Shown here piece by piece: positions 2,868 through 48,079 of a stretch of 64,000 bases of DNA. Source of the DNA: Bacteriovoracaceae bacterium UBA6153 (GTDB lineage Bacteria; Bdellovibrionota; Bacteriovoracia; Bacteriovoracales; Bacteriovoracaceae); NCBI GenBank assembly GCA_002428265.1, contig DIUR01000010.1, forward strand, positions 3,639 through 67,638, in the 5' to 3' direction. Positions within the stretch are counted from its first letter, which is position 1. Each line of letters starts with the position of its first letter. Made by a program: the position numbers and the translations under genes. A model generated the notes under the pieces. That model was not told where the DNA came from, did no database searches, and saw nothing but the letters and a program-made list of their open reading frames with translations.

Positions 2868-3700
2868 TGATGTCAAATACAAAAGAAAGAATCATTTCAG
2901 CATTAATTATGGCGGCGATCGTGATCGCAGCAGTATTAGGCGGAAGATGGACAACACTTCTAGCTGTTTGGGCCGCAGGTGTACTTTGTATTGATGAGTT
3001 GCTTTGTAATTTTGCTAAAGTTAAAAGAAGCGATTTCGTTTTTAAATATGTCGTGATCTTTTTCACACTCTTTTTTGTCACAGTAAATGCACTCAATGCC
3101 AGACTTTCACTTTATTTTTTCACGATAGCATCTTTGATGCTGAATTTATTTTTGATTTATTACTTATTTAAAATTCCTATGGAAAAAGCGTTCATGAAAA
3201 ACAGCGCTATTAAAACTCCGGGATTAATTGCTGCTTTAGTTATCCTTCCACTTCTGTCGTTTGGGATTCATTTCGAGACGGAAAATTGGAGACAAATTCT
3301 TGGTATGTTATTGATCGTTACTTACTCTATGGATACCGGAGCTTGGTTTGTTGGCAAAAATTTCGGTAAACATAAATTATGGCCAGTAGTAAGTCCTAAG
3401 AAAACTGTTGAGGGATTAATTGGTGGTATGATCATTGCTGCACTATGTGGCTCATTGGCATGGTACTATTTCTTTGATCAATTCAGATGGTATTACTCAG
3501 TTATTTTCGCTCTTTGCGGAATGATGTCGCAAGTCGGTGATTTAGTTCAGTCAAAACTTAAAAGAGAGTTTGAAATCAAAGACAGCTCAAACCTGATTCC
3601 AGGACATGGCGGGGTATACGATCGTATAGACAGCCTTATCTTTCTGTCGCCTTTTTTCGTGATTGTTGTAAAATACTTAGGACAGCAATTTACAATTTAA
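2867..3700 (+). CDS. cdsA: phosphatidate cytidylyltransferase
   Basis: SPKKTVEG and GDLVQSKLKREFEIKDSSNLIPGHGGVYDRIDS motifs; multi-TM. Confidence 0.96.
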   Translation: MMSNTKERIISALIMAAIVIAAVLGGRWTTLLAVWAAGVLCIDELLCNFAKVKRSDFVFKYVVIFFTLFFVTVNALNARLSLYFFTIASLMLNLFLIYYLFKIPMEKAFMKNSAIKTPGLIAALVILPLLSFGIHFETENWRQILGMLLIVTYSMDTGAWFVGKNFGKHKLWPVVSPKKTVEGLIGGMIIAALCGSLAWYYFFDQFRWYYSVIFALCGMMSQVGDLVQSKLKREFEIKDSSNLIPGHGGVYDRIDSLIFLSPFFVIVVKYLGQQFTI

Positions 3701-3734: not shown

Positions 3735-5309
3735 ATGTTATTAGAAAAAATCGTCGTATTTATTATTTTCCTTGGGCCATTGGTTTTTTTCCATGAGCTC
3801 GGCCACTTTCTTTTCGCCAGATTATTTGGTGTTAGAGTTGAAGTCTTTTCAATTGGATTTGGTCCAAAACTTTTCAAGAAAAAATGGGGTGATACTGAGT
3901 ATGCAGTCTCAGCTATACCACTAGGTGGATACGTTAAGATGTATGGAGATGATCCATTCAATAAAGATGATATCCCTGAATCAGAAAGAGCAAAAAGTTT
4001 TACTCACCAAGGTAAGTGGGCACGCTTTTGGATCGTTATGGGTGGACCATTAGCGAACTTCATTTTAGCTTTCGTGATTTTCTTTGCTCTATTAATTGCT
4101 GGAGAGAGGATTCCAGAAATTAAAATTGGTGCAATCACTCCAGAGACAAGCCTTTATCAAAATGGCGTAAGAACAGGTGACGTTCTTGTTCAAGTGAACA
4201 AAAACGATGTTTATAACCCTTCTGACTTAATGGTTGATGGAAATACAATTGTTAGTTCGTTAACAATTAAAAGAAATGGCGAGACAAAAGAATTAAACGT
4301 TAACTTTGCCGGAGATAAATTCTTCGAAGAAGTTTTAAAGTATCCTCCTTTTTTAAGAAAGCCATACCTGGTTGATAACAGCGCTAATCGTTTTGTGATT
4401 ACTGCTAATAAAGATCAAACTGATTCTCAGCACTCAATTGAAGAGCTGGCGAATATGGAAAACGTAAAAACTCTTTACTTGTACCCGGTTGTTAAAGGTG
4501 AAGACCTGGCGAGCGATACAGTAAAGGTTGATACTGCTGCAGTTAAAGAAATTAAGGTTTCATACAATAATCTAAATACTCTTTTAATTGCTCTTGAAGC
4601 TCAAGGTCTAAGAACCATTGATTTAATGGTTAGAAGTGTAAACATGGGTTCTCCAGCCGATAAAGTTGGAATCAAAAGTGATGATGTATTCATTAGTCTT
4701 GAGGGACAGAAAGTTTATAGCTTTGAAGAATTAAGAACAAAACTTCAGACAATTAATAAGCCTACTGTAGATGTAGAAGTCTATAGTGCAGGTGTGCTTA
4801 AAAAAATTACAGTGACTCCTGATTCAAGTGTTCAAGATGGAAAAACTGTTAAGCTCTTAGGTGTATATAGTTTCATTGAGGTTTTAAAAACAAACTTCGT
4901 TTTAACAAAGTCTAAAGGTCTTTGGAGCTCGACAACAGTTGCCGTTGCCCGTACATGGGATTCAATGAAGAAAACTGTTGATGGGTTTGTGAAATTGATT
5001 ACAAATCAAGTTTCTCTGAAATCAATCGGTGGACCACTTGCTATTGGTAAAGTTGCCCATGATTCATTTAATACATCACTTTCATACTTCTTTCAGTTAA
5101 TGGCACTCATATCTGTAAACCTTGGTGTTATTAACCTTTTCCCAATTCCAGTTCTTGATGGTGGGCATATCATGTTCATCGTTTTAGAAATTGTGAATCG
5201 TGGACCACTTTCGAGAAGAAAGATGGAGATTGCTCAACAGGTAGGGTTATCAGTTCTGTTAATGCTAATGGTTGGTGCAATTTTTAATGATGTGACTAGG
5301 TTCTTTTAA
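3735..5309 (+). CDS. rseP: RseP/M50 intramembrane metalloprotease with PDZ domains
   Basis: HELGH zinc motif, GGPLAN, INLFPIPVLDGG. Confidence 0.95.
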   Translation: MLLEKIVVFIIFLGPLVFFHELGHFLFARLFGVRVEVFSIGFGPKLFKKKWGDTEYAVSAIPLGGYVKMYGDDPFNKDDIPESERAKSFTHQGKWARFWIVMGGPLANFILAFVIFFALLIAGERIPEIKIGAITPETSLYQNGVRTGDVLVQVNKNDVYNPSDLMVDGNTIVSSLTIKRNGETKELNVNFAGDKFFEEVLKYPPFLRKPYLVDNSANRFVITANKDQTDSQHSIEELANMENVKTLYLYPVVKGEDLASDTVKVDTAAVKEIKVSYNNLNTLLIALEAQGLRTIDLMVRSVNMGSPADKVGIKSDDVFISLEGQKVYSFEELRTKLQTINKPTVDVEVYSAGVLKKITVTPDSSVQDGKTVKLLGVYSFIEVLKTNFVLTKSKGLWSSTTVAVARTWDSMKKTVDGFVKLITNQVSLKSIGGPLAIGKVAHDSFNTSLSYFFQLMALISVNLGVINLFPIPVLDGGHIMFIVLEIVNRGPLSRRKMEIAQQVGLSVLLMLMVGAIFNDVTRFF

Positions 5310-41832: not shown

Positions 41833-41907
41833 CCTTTTTATTTGTCACGCTCCTTTAAGAGATGTTCTAATATTCCCAAATTAAAATTTAAACATTGGGC
41901 ACACTCC

Positions 41908-42738
41908 ATGAAAACAATCATCGCATTAATTGCATTAACATTCTCACTTCAAACATTTGCGGCCTGTCCTGATATCACTGGTTCGTTTTTTGATGCTGAT
42001 ACTGAAACTGTCCGCACAATCACTCAAGATCAATGCGCAAGCACGACTTGGTCTGATGAGGATGGGACAACTATTCTTATTGCCGATGGTGTAGAAAGAG
42101 TTCTTCAGTCTGAAGGATCGATGACGGCCTATGCAAAAGTCACTTTTACAACAGAAGAATTTATCATTGATATCCGAATGGATTATGGCGGAAGCAATGA
42201 TTATGATCTGCCTGTGAGATGGATCACATCTTATCGCATTGATAAATTCAACAACCTGGTTGAAAAGATCATTCCATATAAAGAAGATGGGTCTATGGGG
42301 GGAGTTGAGTATATCACCTTTAGAAGAGTGAAAACGGCTACTGCGCTTAATTGTCCTGATTTAAGCGGATCTTATTTGGATAAAAGTGGAGAGAGCGTTG
42401 TGCTTTCTCAAAAAGGCTGTGGCGAGGTCTCGATATTATCGCGCCCGTTATCGCATACCCTTATGTTAAATAATGAATATACACTTGTTTTAGATGATCA
42501 ATACAATCGCGCTTTTGGAAGAGGAACTTTTGAAGCAGCAGAGTTGGTATTAGAAGTTAAGATCGAATACAAAAAAGACCCAGGTATTCCGGCGATGTTT
42601 CTTCCTGTCAGGGCGGTTAATAGATACTCACATACAGACAGTGGAGATCTTCTGGAAAAATCCACAATCTATAATTCATCAAATAAAGTCATAACTAATA
42701 CGAAAACCATTTACAAAAAATCCCCTGTAAAAAAGTAA
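41908..42738 (+). CDS. hypothetical exported protein with two tandem homologous beta-domains
   Basis: Signal peptide ending TFA-A. CPD(I/L)(T/S)GS...Q-x2-C and LPVR...Y...L(V/L)EK each occur twice. Confidence 0.75.
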   Translation: MKTIIALIALTFSLQTFAACPDITGSFFDADTETVRTITQDQCASTTWSDEDGTTILIADGVERVLQSEGSMTAYAKVTFTTEEFIIDIRMDYGGSNDYDLPVRWITSYRIDKFNNLVEKIIPYKEDGSMGGVEYITFRRVKTATALNCPDLSGSYLDKSGESVVLSQKGCGEVSILSRPLSHTLMLNNEYTLVLDDQYNRAFGRGTFEAAELVLEVKIEYKKDPGIPAMFLPVRAVNRYSHTDSGDLLEKSTIYNSSNKVITNTKTIYKKSPVKK

Positions 42739-42860
42739 TGAGGTCAAAATTTTGAATCTTACTTTTTCTTTTGACACCTATAGAGGCCAGAAGGGTGTCC
42801 TTTCGTCACTAAAGTAGATTAGACAGTTATGCCAATCAAGGTGTTACCAATTTGACGGTC

Positions 42861-42878
42861 TTGGCATAGAGAGTGCAA
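42861..42878 (+). promoter_or_regulatory. sigma54 (RpoN) -24/-12 promoter
   Basis: TTGGCATAGAGAGTGCAA: GG at 42863-64, exactly 10 nt, then GC at 42875-76; intergenic. Confidence 0.65.
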
Positions 42879-42897
42879 TAGTCATAATCAGGAGATC

Positions 42898-42960
42898 ATG
42901 GATGATTTCCACCAAGGTTGGGATTCAAGGAAGATTTATTTAAGAGGAGCTTTAGGATGA
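42898..42960 (+). CDS. 20-aa leader ORF (MDDFHQGWDSRKIYLRGALG), absent from the ORF track
   Basis: AGGAG at 42890-94, ATG 42898; its TGA (42958-60) overlaps the next ATG (42957-59). Confidence 0.4.
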   Translation: MDDFHQGWDSRKIYLRGALG

Positions 42961-43298
42961 AGCAAATTACAAGACTAGGAAAGGTCACTATTACAGCTTT
43001 GGGTTTGAGTATGATTTTGGGAGTGCAAGCAGCACTTGCAACGTCGGCAATCAGCCTTTCTTGTCCTGAGAAATACATCGCTACAGTGACTAATGTAGAA
43101 GATGTAGATTCATCCGCTGCCCTTCAGAAGGTCGAAGTCGACTTCCAGATTATTCAGACGCTCAAAGGTGATGAGATTCGTTCTAAAAAACTACAGGTCG
43201 TAAAAGATGGGCCTATTAAGTTTAAGAGCGGAGAGATCTACACACTTGAAGCAAATAATATCTGGCTTTGTTCTGCGACTGCATTTTCTAAAATATAG
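42957..43298 (+). CDS. small exported protein, TIMP/NTR-like OB-fold candidate
   Basis: Signal peptide ending ALA-T, two Cys, pattern C...V-x-F-x-I-x2-LKG...F-x2-GE-x-Y-x-L...C; GAGGAG RBS. Confidence 0.6.
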   Translation: MKQITRLGKVTITALGLSMILGVQAALATSAISLSCPEKYIATVTNVEDVDSSAALQKVEVDFQIIQTLKGDEIRSKKLQVVKDGPIKFKSGEIYTLEANNIWLCSATAFSKI

Positions 43299-43367
43299 AA
43301 TTTAGTTTTCTCAAAACTTTCCATGGATGGAGAGTCGTTATAGTGAATATTTTTACAAGGAAGTAAA

Positions 43368-44192
43368 ATGAAGCACACAAAAAAATTGGCCATGAGCATT
43401 TCCCCCCTCTCGCTTATGGCCATTTTATTGTTCCTGGGTATGACTTTTACAGCACATGCCTACACATTCACCTCAGATTTTAAAAATGGTTTTTACTGGG
43501 CATCGTTCCCGATAAAGATGAATAAATTTGCTCCTGTCGCAAGCGACTCGGCACTTTTAGAAAAACTTTCCAATGAAGCAGTCGCTGAATGGGAAGCTGT
43601 CATTGGAAAAGATATTTGGGAGTTCACGGCCGTTCAAAATACAGCGAACTATGCGGGGAACTTTATCAGATGGTCTGATAATTTTGGCGCAGAAACTGGT
43701 TATGATCCTCAAAGAACATTGGCGATCACAATCAGATATAATTCAGGAACAAATTTTCAGCAGACAGTTATTATCTTAAATGGAAGTATCGCTTCTCTTA
43801 GACAGAACTGGGGAAACACCCTAAAGACCACTATTCTTCATGAGATTGGACACACTCTTGGGCTTGATCACTCGGAAGATTCAGGTGCTGTGATGGCCGC
43901 AAGCCTTGGTGCTGCTGTTAGTTTGCAGTCAGATGATATTGAAGGAGTGAATGCAGTTGTTGATGAAACATCGAGAAGACAATCGACTGGTTATGTTTCA
44001 CCACTCTCAACTTCAACATCTGAAAAAAAGGTTGCTGCTTGTGGAACAGTTGAAGATATCTCAAAGAACTCAGGTGGGTCAGGTGGAGCGATGGCAAATT
44101 TCATGGGATCTCTGATGGTAGGATTAATGTTGATTGTAATAGTAGGAAAGCTTGAAAGGACTAGGCGTCAAAAGGGTTTTGTCAGGTATTAA
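43368..44192 (+). CDS. matrixin family (M10) zinc metalloprotease with a C-terminal membrane anchor
   Basis: HEIGHTLGLDHS zinc motif, AVM Met-turn, signal peptide ending AHA-Y, C-terminal TM helix plus basic tail. Confidence 0.9.
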   Translation: MKHTKKLAMSISPLSLMAILLFLGMTFTAHAYTFTSDFKNGFYWASFPIKMNKFAPVASDSALLEKLSNEAVAEWEAVIGKDIWEFTAVQNTANYAGNFIRWSDNFGAETGYDPQRTLAITIRYNSGTNFQQTVIILNGSIASLRQNWGNTLKTTILHEIGHTLGLDHSEDSGAVMAASLGAAVSLQSDDIEGVNAVVDETSRRQSTGYVSPLSTSTSEKKVAACGTVEDISKNSGGSGGAMANFMGSLMVGLMLIVIVGKLERTRRQKGFVRY

Positions 44193-44200
44193 AAATATAG

Positions 44201-44227
44201 TTAATTTTCATTTGAAAATGCCGATAA
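44201..44227 (+). promoter_or_regulatory. sigma28 (FliA)-type promoter
   Basis: TTAATTTT-11 nt-GCCGATAA versus consensus TAAAGTTT-N11-GCCGATAA; the -10 box ends 6 nt before ATG 44234. Confidence 0.6.
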
Positions 44228-44233
44228 AAAGGC

Positions 44234-44710
44234 ATGAATGAAAACAACAAAACCACAATTAATTACATCTTTTACCTTCAAACAAAACTAGAGCTGGATA
44301 ATACGTATTATGTATTAGCAGAAGTACTAGGAAAGATTAATATAAGTTTACTTCCGATACAGGAACAAGATTTAAAAGATATTGATAAAAGTAAAAAACA
44401 ACATGTAATAGTTGTGAGAAATGATTTTTCATCTGCATTTGCTTTTAACAATATTAGAAAGAATTTCCTTGAAGCTTCTATGAACTCTGGTAAGCTCGTT
44501 GTTTACGATGTAAGCTCTTTTTCTGAAATAGAAAATGCAGCAAAGTTTGAAAGCAAAAATGTTTACAGGTATTTTCAACTTCCACTCAATGTGAAGCAAA
44601 TTGCAATGACGGTGGCCGTAGAATATTACAAAGACAGGAATGCAGCTCCGGCAGCGGAATGGCCAGGCGGGCGTAGAGCGAAATTGCCTTCTATGACGAA
44701 TTCAAACTAA
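44234..44710 (+). CDS. hypothetical cytoplasmic protein, pseudo-receiver-like
   Basis: Five alternating beta/alpha segments; FQLP where a receiver has KP; conserved acidic residues absent. Confidence 0.55.
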   Translation: MNENNKTTINYIFYLQTKLELDNTYYVLAEVLGKINISLLPIQEQDLKDIDKSKKQHVIVVRNDFSSAFAFNNIRKNFLEASMNSGKLVVYDVSSFSEIENAAKFESKNVYRYFQLPLNVKQIAMTVAVEYYKDRNAAPAAEWPGGRRAKLPSMTNSN

Positions 44711-44729: not shown

Positions 44730-45143
44730 ATGAAAGTAAAAATCAGTGAAGAAACGCAACGTATGCTCATGCTGTTAAAGCTTGATGCCAAAAGATTATT
44801 TGAGCGAATCAAATACAGATCTCCAGAATACATGTACGAATTTTCACTTAAGCGCACGAGAGATCATTTCCCTGCGGTGTTTACGAATCGTTATGATTCA
44901 ACCACTATCAGAGATCTTTTGTTGTGCGGACAAGAGGTGATCGTCGGTCTTGATAATTTTTATTCAAGAGTCGATGAGATGCGCTGGTATTTAAACCATA
45001 CTCAAGACATGCCCAACAGAGTGGAAGACAAAGTTCAGGCGCACGTAAGAGATTTAGAAAAGTTATTCGAGACATTGAATTTATATATAGACGTAGAAAT
45101 GGGCCTTATCAAAGAACAAACGAATCATGAAACAGACAATTAA
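44730..45143 (+). CDS. hypothetical cytoplasmic helical protein
   Basis: 137-aa ORF with normal codon usage; TATACT 9 nt upstream. Confidence 0.7.
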   Translation: MKVKISEETQRMLMLLKLDAKRLFERIKYRSPEYMYEFSLKRTRDHFPAVFTNRYDSTTIRDLLLCGQEVIVGLDNFYSRVDEMRWYLNHTQDMPNRVEDKVQAHVRDLEKLFETLNLYIDVEMGLIKEQTNHETDN

Positions 45144-45707: not shown

Positions 45708-46394
45708 ATGAGTTTAATTTTAAAGATCATTCCAGTTATTATGCTGCTTGTTTCAACGAGTGCGTTTTCTGCACTTTCAGAAGATGGATTTTTTTCGGGA
45801 AGAATTTCTAAAATCAATCGCGAAATCTCTGTCGTCAGAATCAAAGTTGATTTCGACAACATCAAATACATTAACGTCAAAGACAAGCTCGAATTTTGGG
45901 ATGAAAAAAACAGTACATTAAAATGTAAGAGTTACGTCATCGGCAGAACGTCTGATTATATTTTATTAAAACTTCCAGACATGAAGTACTGTGAGCAGAA
46001 TCTCTATTTCACCACCGGGGCCTATTTTAAGTTCTTCAGTGAAGACTTAAAGAATAATGTCAGCATGGGCCGTGAAGTGGTAGGGATACTTATTAAAAAA
46101 CGCATGGCAGTTCAAGGCCAGATGGATGTTCGAAATAAAGAAATTCAGGGCCACATGGATAGGGTAGGCTCTCTCAATGCGCGTTATCAAACACTCCGCG
46201 AAAAACTAGAGCAAGAGTGGCAAAAGGAACTCCATGCTTTAGACGAGGACAGGACATACTCTCTAAGGTCTTATAAAGATTTAGAACGCCGCCGTGATGA
46301 GATTGATCAAAAGCTTGAACAGTATAAGCTCAAAGATGAGAATCTCACTCTCGATCGCTGGTCTCTAGACTCTAACCTGTATTTCAAAAAATAA
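45708..46394 (+). CDS. hypothetical exported protein: N-terminal beta-domain plus C-terminal coiled coil
   Basis: Signal peptide ending AFS-A; heptad-like charged C-terminal half. Confidence 0.7.
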   Translation: MSLILKIIPVIMLLVSTSAFSALSEDGFFSGRISKINREISVVRIKVDFDNIKYINVKDKLEFWDEKNSTLKCKSYVIGRTSDYILLKLPDMKYCEQNLYFTTGAYFKFFSEDLKNNVSMGREVVGILIKKRMAVQGQMDVRNKEIQGHMDRVGSLNARYQTLREKLEQEWQKELHALDEDRTYSLRSYKDLERRRDEIDQKLEQYKLKDENLTLDRWSLDSNLYFKK

Positions 46395-46423: not shown

Positions 46424-46453
46424 GTATTAATTTTTTAAAAGGTGGGAAATACT

Positions 46454-48079
46454 ATGAAAAAGTGTGTAATTGCTCTTTCTTTTTTGCTTGGTGCCATGAA
46501 TGCACATGCAATCGGAAATCCTAATGCTCCATTCGGTGGAGAGTTCAAAAACAATCTCGGACAGGCCCCTACAACATTAAATCCTCTTAGCTCTTCAGAT
46601 GCTTATGCAAGTGAAGTTCAATCGATGATTATGGAAGGACTTCTTACTAGAAATACAGACACGAGAGAGTGGGAGCCAGCTCTTGCAAAAGAATGGACGA
46701 TTTCAAAAGACCAAAAAGTTTTTGAGTTCACACTGAGAGACGGAGTGAAGTGGCATGATGGAAAACCTCTTACTATTGAAGACGTTAAGTTTTCTTTTGA
46801 TGCGATCATGGATCCAAAAGATAAATATAAAACATCTCACTTAAAGCCTTATTACGAAAACATTAAGTCTGTAGAAATCAGCGGACCAAATAAAATTAAG
46901 TTCACAGTAGGAACTCCATACTTCAACAACTTTTCTGTTGCTGCTGGTTTAACTGTTGTTCCAATGCACTTATATAAAAACCCAAGTAAAGAGCAAGAAA
47001 AAGTTCTTAACAGAACGCTTGTTGGTACTGGGCCATACATGTTGAAAGAGTTCGATCGCTCGAAAAGAATTTTATTAACAGCAAACCCAAACTGGTGGGG
47101 AAGAAGTATTCCTTCAATGAAAGGGATTCATAATTTCCAAACAATCAATTTACGTTTTATCCAGGATTCAACTATTGGTATCCGTTCATTAGAAAATGGT
47201 GAGATTGATTTCTTGGGTCTACAGCCAGATGAATACCAACAAAAAGCAGTTGGTCCAAAATGGGGAAAAAGTGTAAAGAAAGTTAAAGCTGAAAACAAGC
47301 AGGTTACTGGATACACTTTTGTTGGATTTAACCTTACAAACCCAATGTTTAAATCTGTTAAAACCAGAGAAGCAATGGTTCACCTTTTCAACAGAAAAAA
47401 CATTATTGAAAAACTATTTTTCAATCTTTCAACTCCTGCGACTGGGCCTTTATACCCAGCTAGTGATTATGCTGATTCAAGTGTGAAGCCAATTGAGTTC
47501 GATCCAGCTCTTGCTCTTAAAAAATTAAATGAAGACGGATGGAAAGATACTGATGGGGATAGAATCCTTGATAAAATGATCGATGGTAAGAAAGTAAAGT
47601 TAAGCTTCACTATTCTTGAACCACTTCCTGATTATGTTAGATACTTAACAGGATTCCAACAGGACGCTAAGAAAGCAGGTGTTGATGTTCAGATTAAAGT
47701 CGTTGAGTGGAACGCGTTCATTAAACTTCTTGATGAAAGAAAATTCGAAGCAGTAAGACTTGCTTGGGGTGGTGGGGACCTTGACTGGGATCCAAAACAA
47801 ATCTGGCACTCAGATTCAATTGCAAACTCAGGATCAAACTTCGTAAGCTACAGCAACCCAAAAGTTGATAAACTTATTGATGAATCTCGTGTTGTAATGG
47901 ATAAAAAAGTTAGAATCACGAAACTTCGCGAAGTTTACAGAACGATCGCTGCTGATGTTCCTTATATCTTTTTATTTAGCAATAAATACAGACTCTATGG
48001 CCACTCTGAAAGAATGGGCAGAGAGAAAGATGCATACACTTATGGTGTAGGTACTGATTACTGGTGGATTGCAAAATAA
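46454..48079 (+). CDS. peptide ABC transporter substrate-binding protein (family 5)
   Basis: PTTLNP, EPALAKEW, LRDGVKWHDGKPLT-x2-DVKFS, VGTGPY; ATG 46454. Confidence 0.92.
   Translation: MKKCVIALSFLLGAMNAHAIGNPNAPFGGEFKNNLGQAPTTLNPLSSSDAYASEVQSMIMEGLLTRNTDTREWEPALAKEWTISKDQKVFEFTLRDGVKWHDGKPLTIEDVKFSFDAIMDPKDKYKTSHLKPYYENIKSVEISGPNKIKFTVGTPYFNNFSVAAGLTVVPMHLYKNPSKEQEKVLNRTLVGTGPYMLKEFDRSKRILLTANPNWWGRSIPSMKGIHNFQTINLRFIQDSTIGIRSLENGEIDFLGLQPDEYQQKAVGPKWGKSVKKVKAENKQVTGYTFVGFNLTNPMFKSVKTREAMVHLFNRKNIIEKLFFNLSTPATGPLYPASDYADSSVKPIEFDPALALKKLNEDGWKDTDGDRILDKMIDGKKVKLSFTILEPLPDYVRYLTGFQQDAKKAGVDVQIKVVEWNAFIKLLDERKFEAVRLAWGGGDLDWDPKQIWHSDSIANSGSNFVSYSNPKVDKLIDESRVVMDKKVRITKLREVYRTIAADVPYIFLFSNKYRLYGHSERMGREKDAYTYGVGTDYWWIAK

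Follow-up and report, generated by a model that had tools for sequence, protein, structure and literature searches.

Genes at the locus

The pair of genes described here resides in a 64,000-nucleotide stretch of the genome of Bacteriovoracaceae bacterium UBA6153 (assembly GCA_002428265.1, contig DIUR01000010.1, positions 3,639 to 67,638), hereafter called the window. The first gene (42957-43298, forward strand) encodes a small exported protein of 113 aa for which neither Pfam nor NCBIfam holds a model, the second (43368-44192, same strand) a zinc protease of the M10A, or matrixin, type of 274 aa. The stop codon of the small gene (end at 43298) and the ATG of the protease gene (43368) are separated by an intergenic spacer of 69 nt (43299-43367, forward strand), which carries a ribosome-binding site (AAGGAAG, 43357-43363) and in which no terminator-like site was found. 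A Shine-Dalgarno-like sequence, AAGAGGAG, precedes the small gene at 42942-42949. Farther 5' lies a promoter-like site (TTGGCA-16-CATAAT, 42861-42888, forward strand) matching 10 of 12 consensus positions; it is a consensus match alone, in a region containing fewer such sites than shuffled sequence. The two open reading frames share one frame at a distance of 411 nt, and three stop codons intervene. Read-through of the small gene into the protease was considered and rejected, because frames differ in relatives and the shared frame is thus a coincidence.

The small protein starts with a predicted Sec signal peptide (residues 1-28, 42957-43040), whose n-region, h-region and AxA site can be read from the sequence; cleavage would occur after ALA, at the junction between MKQITRLGKVTITALGLSMILGVQAALA and TSAISLSC. 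The seven residues TSAISLS (43041-43061), predicted to be flexible and called here the N-terminal trunk, lead into a domain of ~78 aa (43062-43295) modelled as an OB-like five-stranded beta-barrel. Cys36 (43062-43064) and Cys105 (43269-43271), the CPxKF and LKxGPxxFxxGxxY motifs, and the stretches YIATVTNV, VEVDFQIIQTLKG and FKSGEIYTL are its landmarks.

The protease has a signal peptide of its own (residues 1-31, 43368-43460, cleavage after AHA), followed by the catalytic domain (43461-44007), and matches PF00413 (Peptidase_M10) with 42.9 bits, the cut-off being 24. The zinc motif HEIGHTLGLDHS (43839-43874) fits HExxHxxGxxH and is followed by the Ser typical of matrixins; the Met-turn is AVM (M176, 43893-43895), and the domain ends with RQxTGY. 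The best PDB matches are the catalytic domains of matrix metalloproteinases (MMPs) 1, 2, 8, 12 and 13, residues 96-196 of the query aligning to residues 56-155 of the MMP-2 chain. The PRCGxPD cysteine-switch propeptide is typical of MMP zymogens. It is absent here, because C225 is the only Cys of the protein, and the ~10 residues by which the catalytic domain is separated from the signal-peptide cleavage site are too few to host it. The description given in the original prediction, that is, an exported protein of 113 residues with two Cys and the quoted stretches, placed 69 nt upstream of an M10 protease which has the zinc motif and the AVM turn and lacks a propeptide, is therefore correct in every detail.

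In all the protease orthologues, described below, the AxA-type signal-peptidase site is directly followed by [YFW]-x-[FYL]-T-x-D-F-x-x-G-x-Y-W, and an aromatic residue is invariably the first of the mature enzyme (Y32 in the window protein, within YTFTSDF). The Phe/Tyr found at that position in MMPs becomes the N-terminus only once the propeptide has been removed. Since here the aromatic residue is exposed directly by signal-peptidase cleavage, the protease should be born mature. The mature catalytic domain contains just the three catalytic His (three to six His in the orthologues), and the structural zinc site of MMPs is for this reason probably missing. In locus L043 (metagenome-assembled genome, MAG, STL-BDE1) an in-frame TAG (4160-4162) occupies the position of the invariant Trp in the EWE motif of the protease, next to an intact small gene; the TAG denotes either a pseudogene or a fault in the assembly.

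Past RQxTGY, the order of elements is a Ser/Thr/Glu-rich linker, a Cys motif of the [AST]-C-[GA]-[ST]-[VI] type, a Gly-rich spacer, a transmembrane helix and a basic cluster. The tripartite tail of the window protease (44034-44189, forward strand) carries the motif A-C-G-T-V, in which Cys225 (44040-44042) is invariant in alignment A5, the Gly-rich spacer, the helix (~44094-44153) and RTRRQK; no other open reading frame in the window ends in this manner. The architecture is that of the MYXO-CTERM type. Sec exports proteins with such tails, which fold on the periplasmic side while they are tethered to the inner membrane; lipidation of the Cys has been proposed, an intramembrane protease cleaves the tail, and a type II secretion system (T2SS) then moves the protein to the cell surface (PMC11980579). 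Like the MYXO-CTERM/MXAN_2677/2678 metalloprotease family, the window enzyme combines a signal peptide with a Cys motif, a transmembrane helix and a basic cluster, and it matches weakly NF041905, the NCBIfam model of a myxosortase-dependent metalloprotease family (29 bits, the cut-off being 250). Unlike MYXO-CTERM proteins, it has a tail which matches no CTERM model, the Cys lies ~18 residues before the helix, and the lineage is Bdellovibrionota-like rather than Myxococcota. The tail is a likely but unproven sorting or anchoring signal of the MYXO-CTERM type, and may represent an undescribed variant of Cys-type C-terminal sorting signals.

A family of small proteins with a predicted OB fold

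A word-indexed search retrieved 132 close homologues of the small protein (54-93% identity), none with an annotated function; the named sources among them are Bacteriovorax or Bdellovibrionales MAGs. When 1.84 billion cluster representatives were searched exhaustively with a profile, 90 clusters were obtained at E<=1e-3, all of them proteins of 83-155 aa except two very long repetitive proteins sitting at the threshold. Repeating the homologue search with alignment A3 returned mostly the same close family. The features of the open reading frame are not due to chance, because the 132 close homologues and the 90 more distant clusters keep both Cys and the motifs. No match was found to Pfam (E<=1) or NCBIfam for the window protein, nor to Pfam (E<=0.01) for any of 63 diverse family members, and searches of PDB sequences, either with the single sequence or with a profile, gave nothing meaningful. 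By the measure of these searches, the small protein founds a family not described before.

Conservation is strong in the mature domain, but not in the signal peptide, which is free to vary. Proteins sharing 21-47% identity with the window protein retain the two Cys, CPxK[FY]xGxV, three Lys, LKxGPxxFxxGxxY and an LCS motif; the near-invariant Lys are K11, K30 and K55 in the numbering of the mature protein. The conserved surface is made by the region around the Cys pair and by the LKxGP loop, not by the trunk. The trunk is nearly constant in length and usually hydrophobic at position 4, and in 81 of 98 family members exactly seven residues separate the Cys from a cleavage site fitting the (-3,-1) rule. 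Two further identities were considered and discarded. The small protein is no lipoprotein, as a lipobox is missing and K, R, D, P or E often precedes the Cys; a role as metallochaperone is argued against by the lack of conserved metal-binding residues, the family conserving no His, Asp or free Cys. Locus L023 hosts a second, divergent paralogue of the small gene (2888-3256), placed directly 5' of the canonical copy. This extra copy forms with proteins P0131 and P0160 a subgroup which, having a single Cys because the first one is absent, is unable to form the disulfide.

Two AlphaFold2 models of the small protein were obtained, one from a shallow alignment, the other from a deeper and more diverse one. 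Confidence values are similar, with a predicted local distance difference test score (pLDDT) of 81 and 86, and a predicted template modelling score (pTM) of 0.67 and 0.72, respectively. Five beta-strands (residues 10-22, 30-42, 48-54, 66-72 and 75-81) and no helix were assigned by DSSP, and the N-terminus is disordered, residues 1-4 of the trunk having pLDDT <50. Invariance of the two Cys, combined with export, suggests that Cys36 and Cys105 are joined by a disulfide. When the PDB was searched with Foldseek, the NTR domain of PCOLCE1 came first (E 0.02, query-normalised template modelling score, TMq, 0.67), and complement C3 C345C, bacterial DUF2500 and agrin NtA were among the other top matches, with either model. 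With the better model TIMP-2 ranked 13th, TIMP-1 34th and N-TIMP-3 43rd. Matches also include the C345C domains of C3 and C4, and CsaA; TMq values range from 0.57 to 0.68 for NTR, C345C, NtA and TIMP structures. As a control, the same model was compared to the structures in BFVD, and unrelated phage OB folds (DUF669/SSB-like) were retrieved with E values of 0.02-0.1, equal to those of the NTR matches.

The prediction that the small protein is an NTR/TIMP-like OB fold must be split in two. The OB fold class is solid at the level of models, since a five-stranded barrel was obtained in both cases and NTR, C345C, NtA and TIMP structures are among the top matches. Membership in the TIMP/NTR group did not survive. 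Comparison by hhalign of alignment A3 with four human N-TIMPs, the sequences of which had been checked against the PDB, gave a probability of 0.17%, and the only aligned stretch spans 11 residues (DFQIIQTLKGD / EIKMTKMYKGF), a resemblance which presumably first drew the comparison with TIMPs. The mature N-terminus is TSAISLS-C, and throughout the family the Cys is found at about position 8, in place of the Cys1-x-Cys3 of TIMPs; the departure from the canonical N-terminus had been correctly anticipated, and the residues preceding the Cys exclude cleavage directly at it. There are two Cys and one possible disulfide, not six Cys and three disulfides. Packed helices are missing, and the domain, at ~78 aa, is about one third shorter than the TIMP module of ~120-130 aa. 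In all, the barrel is predicted to be present, while four of the six TIMP features were looked for and found lacking. A specific relationship of the small protein to NTR or TIMP domains is thus not supported.

Strict pairing of the small gene with the protease gene

The co-occurrence of the two genes had been suggested as a check of their relationship, and was surveyed from both sides. On the side of the small gene, the contexts of seven homologues were read. Four of these are remote: P0199 (~28% identity, 1.47-Mb contig), P0183 (25%), P0152 and P0139. A Peptidase_M10 gene is found directly 3' of the small gene in every context with readable neighbours, including those of homologues at 21-30% identity; P0139 is on a contig of 937 bp, in which the downstream gene is cut. 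On the side of the protease, an alignment of the enzyme was run against one genome per GTDB species, and 80 loci were searched with custom hidden Markov models. A full-length orthologue (40-78% identity) resides in 33 of these loci, all from MAGs labelled as Bacteriovorax, Bacteriovoracaceae, Halobacteriovorax, Bdellovibrionales or Oligoflexia. The small gene is directly upstream, on the same strand, in all the 32 loci that could be assessed; the remaining locus, L025, has a protease truncated where the contig stops. The other 47 loci, which belong to Chloroflexota, Planctomycetota, Melainabacteria, archaea and others, encode M10-like proteins sharing only the zinc-binding region, and none of them hosts the small gene within 4 kb. 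The spacing between the two genes in relatives ranges from an overlap to ~90 nt, always on the same strand, and no fusion of the two proteins was found among the 90 clusters matched in the profile search. The survey strongly supports a strict and specific pairing of the small gene with this subfamily of matrixins (32/32 versus 0/47), and the small protein is very probably a dedicated physical partner of the protease.

The pair belongs to a larger conserved block, in which the small gene and the protease gene are followed by genes encoding proteins of 158 and 137 aa, a variable stretch, a gene encoding an exported protein of 228 aa, and an Opp-type peptide ABC transporter, the whole often residing after groES-groEL. 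In the window, the first two downstream genes (44234-44710, 158 aa, and 44730-45143, 137 aa, forward strand) encode apparently cytoplasmic proteins, without signal peptide or known family; the exported 228-aa protein (45708-46394) has a coiled-coil-like C-terminal half. The three proteins have no Pfam, NCBIfam or PDB match. These three genes and the transporter (46442-48079) are syntenic with the pair across the whole clade. The 158-aa and 137-aa genes may be in the same operon as the pair, and together with the 228-aa gene and the transporter may make one functional cluster with it, linking a surface protease to peptide uptake. The genes directly 5' of the pair vary between loci. In locus L006 the pair is kept within different flanks, and the 158-aa and 137-aa genes are kept as well. 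Mirror-tree analysis gave for the small protein and the protease a correlation of r 0.87, and a partial r of 0.68 when controlling for the transporter, the highest values of all neighbour pairs.

Upstream of the pair the window encodes a secreted protein of 277 aa (41905-42738), made of two tandem repeats of ~135 aa, each starting with CPD[IL][ST]GS and without known family. In loci L001 (3474-4771) and L004 (3299-4794) this module is found in the form of three distinct genes (~140 aa each), which lie between groEL and the pair. Locus L029 is on a contig of 2.0 Mb (JBLHVN010000001.1) titled Sulfitobacter sp., and carries a block of the Halobacteriovorax type, with groEL, the small and protease genes, the 158-aa, 137-aa and 228-aa genes and Opp in this order; its groEL matches that of the window at 1e-275, and the bin is probably mislabelled. 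The region 42850-44250 of the window recurs letter for letter in a single hydrocarbon-metagenome sample (four runs). Wastewater metagenomes, among them libraries labelled RNA-Seq, commonly contain relatives with which ~58% of the sampled 31-mers are shared. RNA-labelled wastewater contigs span both genes and the spacer uninterruptedly; they were set aside as proof of co-transcription, as DNA may be present in these runs, which hold contigs of ~100 kb. Neither a PHROGs scan nor a tblastn search against phages linked the pair to phages.

A possible latency factor, its rivals and its precedents

What this analysis has established, namely gene anatomy, family, fold class, strict linkage and lack of a propeptide, is the ground on which a role for the small protein can be proposed. 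The pair would be a dedicated, co-transcribed two-gene module of predators of the Bacteriovoracaceae/Halobacteriovoraceae type. Both products have signal peptides, and the spacing of the genes is short or overlapping. According to this hypothesis, signal-peptidase cleavage would expose the mature aromatic N-terminus of a minimal matrixin devoid of propeptide. Because its C-terminus is made of an invariant-Cys motif, a transmembrane helix and a basic tail, the protease is expected to reside in the periplasm as a folded enzyme tethered to the inner membrane, until processing and transfer to the cell surface take place. A matrixin active on arrival, dwelling in the periplasm of its producer, would need a brake, and the natural candidate is the soluble periplasmic partner specified by the same transcript, encoded just ahead of the protease. 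The small protein, plausibly a soluble, exported, single-disulfide OB domain with a flexible trunk of seven residues, would bind the folded protease in the predator's own periplasm and silence it, serving as a trans-acting substitute for the missing propeptide. When the protease is sorted outwards, the small protein would be released or left behind. Engagement might involve the trunk, inserted into the active-site cleft as in AprI or TIMPs, or the conserved CPxKF/LKxGP surface. In favour of this role speak the strict linkage, the strong conservation of the mature domain, the preferred trunk length, a predicted OB barrel having the TIMP-like superfamily as closest solved neighbours, and the mirror-tree correlation. 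A periplasmic latency factor, or inhibitor, which three studied precedents (AprI/AprA, BamI/Mep72 and Tim/Mtz) also fit, is put forward tentatively, the chance that it is correct being judged somewhat short of even.

Several observations weigh against a latency factor. Conservation of the trunk, which a mechanism like that of AprI or TIMPs would use, is 0.8-1.4 bits per position, among the lowest in the protein. The fold matches to NTR and TIMP structures are weak (E 0.02-0.09), none of them reaching E<=0.001. The whole neighbourhood is syntenic across the clade, and the margin by which the pair exceeds the other neighbours in the mirror-tree analysis is small and not discriminating. Charge complementarity between the small protein and the protease (r -0.67 and -0.81) was rejected as evidence, since the 158-aa and 228-aa proteins behave alike, which denotes a lineage effect. 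No NCBIfam CTERM model matches the tails of four orthologues (E<=10), so that the sorting role of the tail is not proven. Physical binding, inhibition, cellular site of action and mode of engagement are, moreover, all steps which we infer.

Synteny is also an argument for the view that the two genes lack any direct functional link, and are kept together by the conserved gene order of a slowly rearranging core region beside groESL, the small protein having an unrelated envelope role. Synteny across the clade extends to at least six genes around the pair, and the mirror-tree and charge analyses single out the pair only weakly; as the whole block is conserved, adjacency must in part reflect inherited gene order. 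Inheritance is unlikely to be the whole explanation, because upstream genes vary, the flanks differ in L006, and the small gene has been duplicated in place in L023. The pair is, furthermore, unsplit in >40 loci, down to 21-40% identity, with operon-like spacing including overlaps, which makes the lack of a link improbable. The same strict linkage fits as well a non-inhibitory escort, which would assist the folding of the protease, its hand-over to the sorting or secretion machinery, or its targeting to a substrate such as the prey envelope. The most conserved surface of the small protein, consisting of CPxKF, the three near-invariant Lys and the LKxGPxxFxxG loop, suits the binding of a partner or ligand; OB folds often bind oligosaccharides, peptides or nucleic acids, and the Foldseek matches include CsaA, an export chaperone. 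Yet, catalytic domains of the MMP type refold without helpers, no sorting system is known to require such a factor, and no recognised ligand-binding motif emerged from the Pfam and NCBIfam scans. An escort is accordingly regarded as unlikely, but worth keeping in mind. The small protein could otherwise be a substrate, or pro-effector, clipped by the protease, for example by removal of the trunk, with the OB domain thus released acting elsewhere. The trunk, flexible, fixed in length and hydrophobic at position 4, is in keeping with this, and in Listeria a metzincin cleaves the adjacent TIMP-like partner, a fragment of which causes a phenotype (PMC8235301). The small protein is, however, no lipoprotein, and there is nothing needing release; the gene order is reversed compared to Listeria, and the pair lies in a chromosomal core region, not in a prophage. 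A substrate role seems quite improbable.

The remaining alternatives concern how latency might be achieved. The small protein could be a true, highly diverged TIMP/NTR homologue, inhibiting the protease in the manner of TIMPs. It is paired with a matrixin, and the best fold matches of both models include NTR (PCOLCE1), C345C, NtA and TIMP-2, -1 and -3; but the hhalign probability (0.17%), the lack of Pfam TIMP/NTR matches in the 63 family members and the mismatches in Cys, helices and length all speak against homology, unrelated OB folds have the same Foldseek E values, and the bacterial DUF2500 matches equally well. Such a homology is held to be very improbable. There is a slim chance that the small protein is instead a minimal, one-disulfide prokaryotic counterpart of TIMP/NTR domains, either an ancient relative or a product of convergence, which inhibits a propeptide-less matrixin in trans; if true, the pair would be a complete bacterial system of the MMP-TIMP type, in which a separate inhibitor replaces zymogen latency, and a new MEROPS inhibitor family. 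Latency could also be obtained in cis, if C225 of the protease itself folded back on the zinc, leaving the small protein to do something else. C225 is the sole Cys, is invariant, and is part of a conserved C-G motif ~25 residues past the catalytic domain (A-C-G-T-V-E-D, to be compared to PRCGxPD). The combination of a Cys, a transmembrane helix and a basic tail matches, however, known sorting signals in which the Cys is lipidated (PMC11980579), and latency in cis is given hardly any credence.

Were the small protein confirmed as an inhibitor, it would define a new OB-fold family of M10 metalloprotease inhibitors, without relatives in Pfam, NCBIfam or the PDB. Latency would depend on a separately encoded partner rather than on a propeptide, and would be coupled to the C-terminal sorting of the enzyme. 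This would bear on how predatory bacteria arm their surface without digesting their own periplasm, and on the question of a single or a repeated origin of the TIMP-type solution, in which an OB barrel is set against a matrixin. The protease and its partner make a matched pair of ~85 and ~180 residues, easy to express and test.

The pairing of a bacterial protease with a dedicated partner has more precedent than the original prediction implied, since metzincin-partner pairs have been already described (AprA/AprI, Mep72/BamI, Listeria Mtz/Tim). AprA, an M10 protease, is blocked by the periplasmic AprI, the zinc being coordinated by the N-terminal residue that signal peptidase creates (PMC4070987). 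Like AprI/Inh/SmaPI (MEROPS I38), the small protein is small (~10 kDa), has a signal peptide, is predicted to be all-beta, is encoded with its cognate M10 enzyme, and would have an N-terminal segment freed by signal peptidase; the proposed role, guarding the periplasm of the producer, is the same. Unlike I38 inhibitors, which are eight-stranded barrels targeting M10B serralysins of the RTX and type I secretion type, it is predicted to be a five-stranded OB-like domain, and lies beside a matrixin-type enzyme. The trunk, moreover, is seven residues long and poorly conserved, unlike that of AprI, and no sequence match to the inhibitor chains of the PDB was found at E<=10.

Gene order is the same as in Pseudomonas aeruginosa, where bamI is upstream of mep72 (PA2782-PA2783), a metzincin gene of the Sec/T2SS route, in a bicistronic operon, and BamI, which forms a complex with Mep72, relieves the toxicity of that enzyme in E. 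coli (PMC4334185). The small gene, likewise, is directly 5' of the gene of a Sec-exported metzincin. BamI has been reported as partly natively unfolded, while the small protein is a predicted compact barrel; Mep72 differs from the window protease in having 599 aa and carbohydrate-binding (CBM) domains. In Listeria the metzincin Mtz is paired with Tim, a TIMP-like lipoprotein which it cleaves (PMC8235301). As with Mtz and Tim, a metzincin is coupled to a small partner whose resemblance to TIMPs lies in the predicted structure rather than the sequence, and many genomes keep the two together. Tim is, in contrast, encoded downstream of mtz, in prophage-like loci governed by a CI/Cro switch, whereas the small gene is upstream, encodes a protein without lipobox, and belongs to a chromosomal syntenic block. 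With the N-domain of TIMPs and NTR domains (MEROPS I35; PF00965, PF01759) the small protein would have in common a secreted OB-type barrel with a putative disulfide, found beside an M10A protease. The pair described here is best viewed as a new protein family in a new lineage, in a role which has precedents in other bacteria.

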